A stretch of 64,000 nucleotides of DNA, taken from the NCBI GenBank assembly GCA_945872355.1, contig CAMBZU010000004.1:3609-67608 (forward strand). Direction: 5' to 3'. The position numbers and the translations under genes were made by a program. Shown here piece by piece: positions 10,794 to 61,683 of the stretch. Each line of letters starts with the position of its first letter. Position 1 is the stretch's first letter. The notes beneath the pieces are model-generated. The model worked only from the letters and a program-made list of their open reading frames with translations, ran no database searches and had not been told where the DNA came from. The stretch comes from Chitinophaga pinensis (GTDB taxonomy: Bacteria > Bacteroidota > Bacteroidia > UBA4408).

Positions 10794-10920
10794 TATACCG
10801 ATGTGAAATAAGCAATGGCCCAAATTTTTTCACGGCATTTGTCCCAAACTTTTTTCCGATCGGCATTTACCAATGTATGATTTTAAATGATTGGCATAAT
10901 TTATAAATCACATTGGTATT
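10794..10920. mobile_element. MITE-like element, copy A (127 bp)
   Basis: Terminal inverted repeats ATACCGATGTGA / TCACATTGGTAT. Reverse complement of 61556-61683 with 8 substitutions and 1 gap by manual alignment. Confidence 0.85.
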
Positions 10921-11334: not shown

Positions 11335-11406
11335 TAGCCCGTAGGGGAATCGAACCCCTCTTACCAGGATGAAAACCTGGCGTCCTAACCCCTAGACGAA
11401 CGGGCC
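11335..11406 (-). tRNA. tRNA-Glu (TTC), CCA not encoded
   Basis: GGCCCGTTCGTCTAGGGGTTAGGACGCCAGGTTTTCATCCTGGTAAGAGGGGTTCGATTCCCCTACGGGCTA folds as a cloverleaf with anticodon stem CCAGG/CCTGG around TTC and T-loop GTTCGA. Confidence 0.97.
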
Positions 11407-30635: not shown

Positions 30636-32261
30636 TTGGAAAATAACCATAAAAACAGCAGTCCTTTTCTTCCCTTATTTTTTGCATTAGCGCTTGTTGT
30701 AGGCATTTTTATTGGTATCAGGCTCAACCGCAACAGTCAGCAAAATCAATTGCTGCAAATGTTTAGCAATGAAAATACGAGCCAAAATAAATTAGATGAA
30801 TTACTGAATTATGTATTAAGAGAATATGTAGATACACTCAATCGCGATAGTTTAACAGATAAAACCATTGAGACTTTATTAGGTAATCTTGATCCGCATT
30901 CGGCCTATATTCCTGCTGCTGATTTACAAGCAACAAATGAACCTTTAAATGGTAATTTTGAAGGCATTGGTGTAGAGTTTAATTTATTGCGCGACACCAT
31001 TTATGTTGTAACAGCTATACCTGGTGGTCCATCGGAAAAAGCAGGTATAAAAAGTGGTGACAAAATTATTTTTGTTGATGGCAAAAAGGTTGCTGGCATT
31101 GGCATTACTAACGAAATGGTATTTAAAAATTTAAAAGGTAAAGGCGGCACTATTGTAAAGATTGGTGTGCTTAGATTTGGTACTGCAAACATCGAATATT
31201 TTAAAATTACCCGAGGTAAAATCCCTATTTATAGTATTGATGCATCATATATGATGGACAGCATCACAGGCTTTGTAAAAATTAGCAGATTTGCCTCTAC
31301 TACTTTTATAGAATTTGAAAGCGCACTTGCTAAACTTGATAAGTTAGGCATGAAGCAACTAATTTTAGATTTAAGAGGGAACCCAGGCGGATATCTTGAT
31401 GCAGCTATTGATATTTGTGATGAGTTTTTACCTAAAGGCAAAATGATTGTTTATACTCAAGGAAAAAACAGGCCACGACAAAATTCAACGGCCACTGAGC
31501 AAGGGCGATTTGAGCAACAAAAATTGGTCATCTTAATTGATGAAAATTCAGCTTCTGCAAGTGAAATTGTAGCTGGAGCTATTCAAGATAACGATAGAGG
31601 AGCTATTATTGGCAGAAGATCCTTTGGTAAAGGACTTGTTCAAGAGCAAAATGAATTTAAAGATGGATCGGCCATTAGATTAACCATTGCGCGCTATTAC
31701 ACACCATCTGGCAGATCAATACAAAAGCCTTATACAAATGGCAATATAGAGGATTATTATAATGAAGAAATGGAAAGATACGATTCGGGCGAATTGGTAA
31801 ATGCTGATAGTGTTAAACTCAATAAAAAATTAAAATACACAACGCCTGCAGGTAAAATAGTTTACGGCGGTGGTGGCATTATGCCCGATTATTTTATCCC
31901 TATTGATACAACTAAATTAAGTAGGTATATTTCTGAATTGCTTTACAAAAATATTATTAATGATTTTGCCTTAGAGTATGTAAATAAAAACAGGGCGAAT
32001 TTAAAATACGCAAGCGCTAAAGAGTTTAATCAAAAATTTGTGGTTAATACACCATTGGTAAACGAACTAAAAGCCTACGCAAATAAAAACAACATTAAAA
32101 CCAAGGCAAATGATTTTGAGAGAGGTTTGGATGTATTGAGTAATCAATTAAAGGCATACATTGCAAAAGATATATTTAATCAAGAAGCCTGGTTTTTTGT
32201 AAAAAATTCACATGATGATGCTTGCAAAAGGGCATTACTGCTATTGTATAGTAAATCTTAG
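30636..32261 (+). CDS. S41 family carboxyl-terminal processing peptidase
   Basis: LDPHS, PDZ domain, LDLRGNPGG, SASASEIVAGA, RSFGKGLVQ and RYYTPSGRSIQ motifs. Confidence 0.93.
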   Translation: MENNHKNSSPFLPLFFALALVVGIFIGIRLNRNSQQNQLLQMFSNENTSQNKLDELLNYVLREYVDTLNRDSLTDKTIETLLGNLDPHSAYIPAADLQATNEPLNGNFEGIGVEFNLLRDTIYVVTAIPGGPSEKAGIKSGDKIIFVDGKKVAGIGITNEMVFKNLKGKGGTIVKIGVLRFGTANIEYFKITRGKIPIYSIDASYMMDSITGFVKISRFASTTFIEFESALAKLDKLGMKQLILDLRGNPGGYLDAAIDICDEFLPKGKMIVYTQGKNRPRQNSTATEQGRFEQQKLVILIDENSASASEIVAGAIQDNDRGAIIGRRSFGKGLVQEQNEFKDGSAIRLTIARYYTPSGRSIQKPYTNGNIEDYYNEEMERYDSGELVNADSVKLNKKLKYTTPAGKIVYGGGGIMPDYFIPIDTTKLSRYISELLYKNIINDFALEYVNKNRANLKYASAKEFNQKFVVNTPLVNELKAYANKNNIKTKANDFERGLDVLSNQLKAYIAKDIFNQEAWFFVKNSHDDACKRALLLLYSKS

Positions 32262-55777: not shown

Positions 55778-55900
55778 TGTTTTTTGGTATAATTAAAGGC
55801 GAAATTAATAAAGTTAATTGAATGTGAAAATATTAGTGCAAAATGAAGCCACTTGACCTGAATAAAGTTGAAGCATAAACAAGCACCAATTGATGAAATA

Positions 55901-56027
55901 ATACCAATTACACTTTCAATTTAGTCCAATTGCGGCATTACCATATGGTACTAATTTCAAGTAGTATCGGCATTAACCATTGCATATTTATTTTTTAGTT
56001 GGCCTAAAAAATAAATGCAATTGGTAT
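55901..56027. mobile_element. MITE-like element, diverged copy C (127 bp)
   Basis: TIR ATACCAATTACAC / ATGCAATTGGTAT; ATCGGCATT.ACCA at nearly the same offset as in copy A; perfect 13-bp hairpin with TTGGC loop. Confidence 0.7.
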
Positions 56028-56140
56028 AATATGATTAAAAGTATATTCCCACCCTGCAAATGTTTTAATACATTGTTCCTTAAGAACCTAGATGCTATGC
56101 TGCACAACCAGACCAGGATGTACCCAAATTAAAATTTTTA

Positions 56141-61555: not shown

Positions 61556-61683
61556 TATACCAATGTGATTTATAAATTATGCCAATAATTTAAAATCTTA
61601 TATTGGTAAATGCCGATCGGAAAAAAGTTTGGGACAAATGAAGTGAAACAAATTTGGTCCATTACTTATTTCACATCGGTATA
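61556..61683. mobile_element. MITE-like element, copy B (128 bp, TA-flanked)
   Basis: TATACCAATGTGA...TCACATCGGTATA; inverted near-identical copy of 10794-10920. Confidence 0.85.

Follow-up and report, generated by a model that had tools for sequence, protein, structure and literature searches.

A modular superfamily of MITE-like foldback elements in Bacteroidota

The locus and its relatives

The window (the whole 64,000-nt stretch of the Chitinophaga pinensis assembly that was analyzed) contains three copies of a short repeat, here called A, B, and C, with cores of 123–125 nt. Copies A and B, which both carry TAAAT(G/T)AT-TGGC-ATAATTTA, belong to one subfamily (A/B) and copy C to another. 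Copy C, to which most of the features in Table 1 refer, has no coding capacity, and the sole frame that overlaps it is a mechanical 50-aa ORF. When the window was searched with Rfam 15 at the curated score, the only match was the tRNA gene near copy A.

Table 1. Positions in the window of copy C and its parts, of copies A and B, and of the nearby tRNA gene
Feature	Position	Strand	Remarks
Element core, copy C (subfamily C)	55902..56026	+	125 nt; 31 full-length copies in the same genome, 80–96% identical to this copy
Target-site duplication, left copy, TAA	55899..55901	+	TWA flanks identical in 23/31 C and 40/53 A/B copies
Target-site duplication, right copy, TAA	56027..56029	+	
Box 1, left end, TACCAAT	55902..55908	+	TACCGAT in most other copies
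Box 2, left end, TCCAA	55925..55929	+	Positions 24–28 from the tip
Left foldback module, 71 nt	55902..55972	+	Terminated by the inner end ATCGGCA
First CGGCATT	55933..55939	+	Loop region of the left module
Module junction, ATCGGCATTAACCA	55966..55979	+	Inner end ATCGGCA, spacer TTA, degenerate inner end ACCA
Right foldback module, 51 nt	55976..56026	+	Folding z-score of the right module −8.1
Inner arm of the 13-bp stem, ATTTATTTTTTAG	55986..55998	+	
Hairpin loop TTGGC (box 2 of the right end)	55999..56003	+	GCCAA on the other strand, positions 24–28 from the right tip
Outer arm of the 13-bp stem, CTAAAAAATAAAT	56004..56016	+	Within the right terminal repeat
Box 1, right end, ATTGGTA	56020..56026	+	
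Copy A (subfamily A/B)	10796..10918	+	Flanks TTA and TTA
Copy B (subfamily A/B)	61558..61681	−	Flanks TTA and TAA, a discordant pair
tRNA gene	11335..11406	−	About 400 nt downstream of copy A

The genome from which the window comes (3.4 Mb in 133 contigs, G000 in the locus names below) contains 161 loci detected by blastn. Full-length copies account for 53 loci of the A/B type and 31 of the C type, and the remaining loci are fragments, deletion forms, and chimeras. The two consensus sequences have 88 of 141 alignment columns in common. The first-pass annotation of the window had described C as a diverged version of A/B that keeps its length and the positions of its motifs. The length and the motifs are indeed kept, but C is a member of a 31-copy subfamily of its own and not a diverged A/B copy. 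The motif that had been noted at offset 64 in A and 65 in C is present, and it marks the junction of two modules; CGGCATT, which was said to occur twice in both sequences, does so except in copy B, where it is found only once. The 14-nt junction motif has four matches in the window at one mismatch or fewer (0.04 would be expected): one in each of the three copies and one, at 31795 with one mismatch, that is a chance match in non-element sequence.

ORFs of at least 100 aa are overlapped by only one of the 53 A/B copies and by none of the 31 C copies. The window copy carries private changes, among them an A in the left tip where most copies have a G. In contigs from two lake metagenomes, most other copies have different letters from the window copy at 55943, 55947, and 56003, and at 56003 an A replaces the C in 127/180 and 1670/2602 contig-depth units. 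Across window positions 55892–56055, contig depth in two lake metagenomes is approximately 75–150 times higher over the element than over its flanks, and the assemblies break at the element.

An A/B query matched 10 of the 41 genomes searched, the source genome included. Five of seven congeners carry the A/B family, and neither the A/B nor the C family was found in two congeners, each of which is 99% complete. Outside the genus, A/B matches occur in two or three other genera of the same family (one or two of them with weak single matches), and one genome from another family of the class matches the query at 69% identity. A pattern scan of one genome per species returned at least 107 stretches, many of them due to chance. 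The real elements among the scan matches listed come from metagenome-assembled genomes labelled Bacteroidia, Chitinophagaceae, Bacteroidetes, and others, with single copies in Draconibacterium isolates. The distribution of the family is patchy. The alternative against which the first-pass annotation had set its own reading, a decaying double-stranded DNA MITE, does not describe the family, which has been active recently and is not in decay. The element belongs to a large modular superfamily of Bacteroidota that is abundant in uncultured freshwater members of the phylum, where it can exceed 100 loci per genome, and that serves as a landing site for other elements.

Bipartite ends, modules, and target duplications

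The element has terminal inverted repeats (TACCRAT ... ATYGGTA), and in most families both ends are bipartite, with a tip motif, box 1 (TACCRAT), and a second motif, box 2 (NCCAA), which occupies positions 24–28. We compared 46 end sequences, which are the two ends of 23 cluster representatives taken from 147 distinct duplication-flanked elements. Two blocks are conserved, namely positions 1–7, which are nearly invariant, and positions 21–28, and the spacer between them is poorly conserved. Within box 2, C25 is found in 34 ends, C26 in 37, A27 in 38, and A28 in 40.

The A/B and C consensus sequences split at the same place. Both have a 71-nt left module that ends in ATCGGCA, followed by a junction spacer (TT in A/B and TTA in C) and a right module of 51–54 nt that starts with TACCAAT, degenerate to varying degrees. 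Where the inner ends of a family are intact, GGCA is followed at the junction by TTA or TAA and then by TACC. The junction consists of two abutted inner ends, with a spacer that has the length of the target duplication. Within each module, the inner, inverted copy of box 1 and the adjoining spacer pair with the outer end. The hairpin of 13 perfect base pairs around TTGGC in copy C, which had been recognized at the outset and which we also find, is the outer right end paired with its inner copy, and the loop of this hairpin is box 2.

The modules are not bound to one partner. The left A/B module is joined to the right A/B module at 38 loci, and the left C module is joined to the right C module at 17 loci and to another right module at 7 loci. 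The right A/B module is found alone at 11 loci, at 4 of them as an exact 51-nt element flanked by a TWA duplication of its own, and a solo left C module is flanked by its own TTA duplication (G000:C1:133506-133576). There is also a third left module, D, of 59 nt; it was found at 23 loci, where its usual partner is a second C-type right module. Modules are found singly, with exchanged partners, and nested within each other.

It had been proposed that the hairpin has a conserved GCCA loop. Among A/B copies, variation is lowest in the outer 23 nt at either end (2.4–3.1%), higher in the inner arms (7.3–7.4%), and highest in the loop (9.4%). The loop reads TGGC in 38 of 53 A/B copies; in C copies it reads TTGGA (7 copies), TTGGC (4 copies), or another form (2 copies), and 18 of 31 have no match to the pattern. 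In other families the loop is TGC, CTAAAA, CTTTG, CTGCGA, or TGAC, or it is 12–13 nt long. Because box 2 is also found at the left ends and coincides with the loop in the right module, what was taken for a conserved loop is the subterminal box of a bipartite transposon end. As a loop the sequence is not conserved, and the version in the window copy is in the minority among C copies whose loop was readable. Two single copies have an inverted loop on an unchanged stem, with GCCA in place of TGGC or ACCA in place of TGGT (G000:C83:13454-13581 and L183:2068-2128), the outcome expected of a flip between two palindrome arms.

We scored the flanks of full-length copies as the three bases outside TACC...GGTA. 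Identical TTA or TAA words are present on both sides of 63 of the 84 copies, and discordant TWA pairs flank another 10. The identical flanks of A/B copies divide into 21 TTA and 19 TAA, those of C copies into 13 TTA and 10 TAA, and each subfamily has five discordant pairs. Because either word flanks copies that share the same internal variants, the middle base of TWA belongs to the target and not to the element. Nested insertions point the same way: one C element lies within an A/B element at a single TTA that was doubled by the insertion (G000:C64:15565-15764), and the sole TAA of the A/B right module has likewise been doubled where D-type elements have inserted at it. For the window copy, no empty site was found in relatives, where the spacer at the locus is different or rearranged, and no contig of two DNA metagenome runs joins across the element.

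Staggered target cleavage by DDE-type enzymes leaves its mark as a short direct duplication whose sequence varies, which HUH single-strand transposons, REPINs, and integron cassettes are not known to produce. We identify the element as a MITE, a non-autonomous cut-and-paste DNA transposon with a two-foldback-module architecture, and assign this identification a probability of about 0.8, a figure that does not extend to the cause of the co-variation of the arms. It is an element of an ordinary kind in an unusual, well-ordered form, and what began as a single odd repeat has become a defined superfamily with bipartite ends, a 3-nt TWA duplication, two end-to-end modules, and free exchange of modules. 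A DDE-type transposase supplied in trans would cut the target with a 3-nt stagger; it would read box 1 and box 2, and the spacer between the boxes would be free to vary.

Searches of the source genome with PF01609, PF13359, PF00665, and PF13358 revealed no autonomous element with these ends, and searches of eight genomes of the genus with NF033563 and PF13586 revealed no gene with these ends; the assemblies searched are drafts, and multi-copy insertion sequences are frequently missing from such assemblies. All transposase genes that were inspected have other ends, and several candidates were rejected. The IS982-like gene beside an A/B copy in G000:C47 has other ends, as do the IS5-type fragments at the ends of contigs C42 and C74 and the full IS5-type copy in G002. 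The sole rve match is an IS3-type gene, and the single DDE_Tnp_4 match is a fragment at a contig end. DDE_3 had no match in the source genome, and no IS30-type transposase was matched in eight genomes of the genus. A gene with DUF772 and DDE_Tnp_1_2 domains, 69 nt from a C-type end (G007:C166), belongs to an unrelated insertion sequence that landed inside MITE copies; the ends of this insertion sequence were defined from three left and three right flanks. No long element was found at the solo ends and contig ends of the source genome or in 12 regions of relatives.

Hairpins and paired changes in their arms

When folded as single-stranded DNA, copies A, B, and C form two hairpins on either strand, one in each half, and no tip-to-tip panhandle. 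The folding z-scores range from −3.2 to −5.6, with 0 or 1 of 200 shuffles folding as well. The initial observation that pairing extends to the element tip and competes with pairing between the terminal repeats is borne out, as the two hairpins out-compete tip-to-tip pairing in all copies and on both strands. In a set of 33 diverse elements, folding surpasses that of shuffles (z below −2) for 27 right and 23 left modules, and the right modules of four loci (L201, L153, L167, and L147) fold no better than shuffles. Loop-side perfect stems of 7–14 bp, unrelated in sequence, are present in 13 of the 33 diverse right modules. The two C-type stems have common flanks and the same 2-nt bulge, and they differ by approximately four positions that are changed on both arms and by one added pair.

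The arms of right modules match their own partners better than they match the arms of other clusters (mean score 7.4 vs 4.0, sd 2.6), whereas the left and right outer spacers are no more alike within an element (3.5) than between different elements (3.0). Because the arms fit their own partners and the left and right spacers do not, the complementarity of the arms is not simply the result of a common protein-binding sequence.

We analyzed co-variation within the A/B-like group using a plain MAFFT alignment of 30 distinct right modules. Pairing is found in 92.5% of alignment cells, compared with 32–42% when the partner is slid. Two-sided changes are present in 4 of 23 pairs, a number that is reached by 14 of 500 shuffles and that compares with 3–6 in the slid controls; 10 cells have two-sided changes, which none of the 500 shuffles reach, and the covariation score is 0.068 vs 0.037. 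The signal inside this closely related group is modest. For 33 left modules, 94.2% of cells pair in the named structure and two-sided changes are present in 2 of 20 pairs, which 101 of 500 shuffles equal; RNAalifold predicted only a 5-bp tip helix for these modules. When 45 right modules were placed in a plain alignment, RNAalifold predicted no pairs; the families are out of register there by loop length. As the sequences are related, none of these co-variation figures is a probability. Unrelated stems occupy the same place in many families and the two arms change together. The co-variation claimed at the outset is supported, and between families it is real.

Unless templated mutation is controlled for, co-variation between the arms of an inverted DNA repeat should not be taken as a sign of selection. 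In palindrome-templated correction, a mutation in one arm is undone or transferred to the opposite arm, and the outcome mimics compensatory evolution. That the arms are alike through a foldback origin followed by such correction during replication is a plausible explanation, to which we give somewhat less than even odds. PMC7202029 describes imperfect inverted repeats as hotspots of template-switch mutation, which makes the arms more alike. The approximately four two-sided changes between the C-type stems, together with the perfect stems in 13 of 33 right modules, are more orderly than would readily be expected of a passive by-product. A second explanation, to which we give slightly lower odds, is selection in favor of folding, or of a cruciform, in which the two tips meet for transposition. 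Families that have the same architecture and unrelated stems provide a good test bed for distinguishing selection for DNA or RNA folding from palindrome-templated mutation.

The element could be the same MITE with hairpins that function in its transposition. Its modules would fold, either within a single strand or as a cruciform, so that both tips and the junction come to lie side by side, and the transposase would act on the folded form. We regard this as possible but on the unlikely side. The stems would be selected for pairing and not for sequence, which would explain why families have different stems even though box 1, box 2, the junction, and the module lengths are retained. The retention of a 71-nt left module in both A/B and C is in keeping with this, as are the large share of modules that fold better than shuffles around unrelated loop-side stems, the preference of arms for their own partners, which the left and right spacers do not show, and, in the A/B-like group, the excess of pairing, the covariation score, and the cells with two-sided changes. 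Free 51-nt modules would be too short to bend as duplex, and a folded form would ease synapsis in such elements. Against it, a G028-type family has no loop-side stem and yet is represented by seven distinct copies in the sample, and an 83-nt derivative without the right hairpin was found twice, with duplications. In addition, four right modules fold no better than shuffles, pairs with two-sided changes are no commoner in the A/B-like group than in the slid controls, RNAalifold found no consensus pairs in the plain alignment of right modules, and the inner arms and loop vary more among copies than the outer ends do. It is unlikely, in our estimate, that a duplication-making transposase uses a folded substrate in which the modules extrude and the tips meet the central end-to-end junction. 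If this were true, it would represent structure-dependent recognition in a duplication-making (DDE-like) system and thus a new mode of transposon end recognition.

A host-level RNA effect is an improbable cause of the likeness of the arms. More generally, the hairpins might matter to the host as RNA or DNA structures in the manner of REP sequences, through protection of mRNA 3′ ends, termination, or a small RNA, with copies kept or oriented through selection on neighboring genes, and we consider this quite improbable. A/B copies lie between convergent genes in 16 of 50 cases (342/2435 genome-wide) and between divergent genes in 3 of 50 (345/2435 genome-wide), but a depletion from promoter regions is also expected from purifying selection on a selfish element. 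Between co-directional neighbors, 24 A/B copies are oriented against the genes and 7 with them (binomial p = 0.003, based on crude ORF calls), which hints at a strand-specific effect; C copies have no such bias (8 vs 5, p = 0.58). Contigs of two metatranscriptome runs contain parts of other copies, but such contigs cannot reveal strand, ends, or true expression. Copies A and C have no terminator-like sites in or beside them, the element has no Rfam match, the loop and the inner arms are the most variable parts among copies, and the perfect stem is kept in only 29 of 53 A/B copies and 10 of 31 C copies. The functional RNA that the first-pass annotation had named as an alternative is not supported.

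Known elements and neighboring repeats

The first-pass annotation favored an HUH-type or attC-like folded substrate, meaning that the element would be acted on as a folded single strand by an HUH enzyme of the IS200/IS605 or RAYT type or by an integron-like recombinase; we consider this very improbable. The element has hairpins at both ends, its genome contains 10 Y1-family matches (one IS200-type gene and nine RAYT-like genes of approximately 130–196 aa), there are more such matches in MITE-rich congeners, and some MITE copies adjoin Y1 genes. However, three of the RAYT-like genes are copies of a unit of approximately 680 nt (90–96% identical, with several copies broken; G000:C117:115-793, G000:C8:27602-28280, and G000:C3:24246-24926 [L238–L240]) that is bounded by its own GC-rich GTAG hairpins, which are unrelated to the MITE ends, and no Y1 transposase was found whose own ends match the element. 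Seven of the nine RAYT-like loci have no MITE module within 1.3 kb, and at the other two the modules lie outside the shared unit. At G007:C178, where MITE and gene are closely adjacent, the gene is interrupted by another small element into which a C element has inserted. With respect to GC skew, copies have no significant preference for either orientation (26 vs 15, p = 0.12). IS200/IS605-type elements and PATEs are recognized by the absence of inverted termini and of a duplication and by a fixed insertion word, a combination that the element does not have. It also has no GTAG or CGTC tag beside a GC-rich palindrome, by which a REP or REPIN is recognized, and its stems are AT-rich. The GC-rich hairpin with GTAG is given as a hallmark of REP sequences in PMC3733652. 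As the MITE has true target duplications (identical at 63/84 copies and made from a single TWA in nested cases) as well as terminal inverted repeats, as the Y1 units have different, GTAG-type hairpins of their own, and as there is no significant skew bias, the HUH or attC reading is not supported.

We compared the element with known systems. In the tandem-dimer and circle junctions of IS30, IS21, and IS911, the ends abut with a 2–3-nt spacer that equals the duplication length, as they do here; the junction described here differs in being internal to a non-coding element of 125 nt and in joining inner ends that are degenerate. Tourist-like MITEs of PIF/Harbinger elements, and IS5-family subgroups that make 3-nt duplications, share the 3-nt TWA target duplication, but their ends are unrelated to those of the element, and the IS5-type genes that we found have other ends. 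As in integron attC sites, structure is kept while sequence varies and short boxes are conserved, but the elements are single dispersed copies with target duplications and inverted termini, and there are no cassette arrays. Correia elements duplicate TA, whereas the duplication here is a 3-nt TTA or TAA. The stems of REP and REPIN sequences undergo compensatory changes, as do the stems analyzed here.

The REP/REPIN sequences associated with RAYT (PMC3116915, PMC3337134, and PMC3733652) are hairpin doublets of approximately 100 nt between genes, often at gene 3′ ends, and in this they resemble the element; it differs from them by the lack of a GTAG/CGTC tag, by its AT-rich stems, and by its true target duplications. 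With bacterial MITEs such as the Correia elements of Neisseria, as reviewed in PMC2229807 and PMC10969869, it shares small size, the absence of coding sequence, AT-richness, and a mostly intergenic location, along with terminal inverted repeats, a target duplication, many copies, and stable stem-loops. It is set apart from them by bipartite ends with a second box at positions 24–28, by a fixed architecture of two foldback modules with an end-to-end junction, and by the exchange of modules between families, and no partner insertion sequence is known. PMC11602168 catalogues 81,380 MITEs of Bacteroidota. No description of the family was found in the parts consulted of the literature on MITEs in Bacteroidetes, including that paper, in whose catalogue the family may be listed without description.

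Other mobile elements were found in or beside the copies. The IS982-like element in G000:C47 (11370-12440; L061, positions ~1015-2085) contains a 299-aa DDE_Tnp_1 gene, has the ends AACCTGAGTTCGATTAAT, and directly adjoins an A/B copy, and in G002 an IS982-like element of the same kind is interrupted by an IS5-type element. RAYT genes are usually single-copy, and the nine RAYT-like matches in the source genome are unusual in this respect. The insertion sequence with DUF772 and DDE_Tnp_1_2, whose ends start with TAGGGCTTGCTG, is found in G001 (C110, C197, C281, and C295; L233 and L235–L237) and in G007:C166 (L225/L228). It is multi-copy in G001, with pieces at contig ends, and has twice inserted in C-type right modules. 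Another small element, whose ends resemble CCCAGATTACGC ... TTAATTTGGG, has inserted in the hairpin region of the MITEs and in a RAYT-like gene. Its loci are G000:C39:12118-12389, contigs C76, C415, and C251 of G007 (L101, L094, and L095), and G007:C178 (L244), and in G007 it is found at contig ends. Finally, a repeat of approximately 165 nt at contig ends of the source genome, for example upstream of the window (C4:1443-1623), has some 38 matches from several contig ends and is probably a further MITE family.
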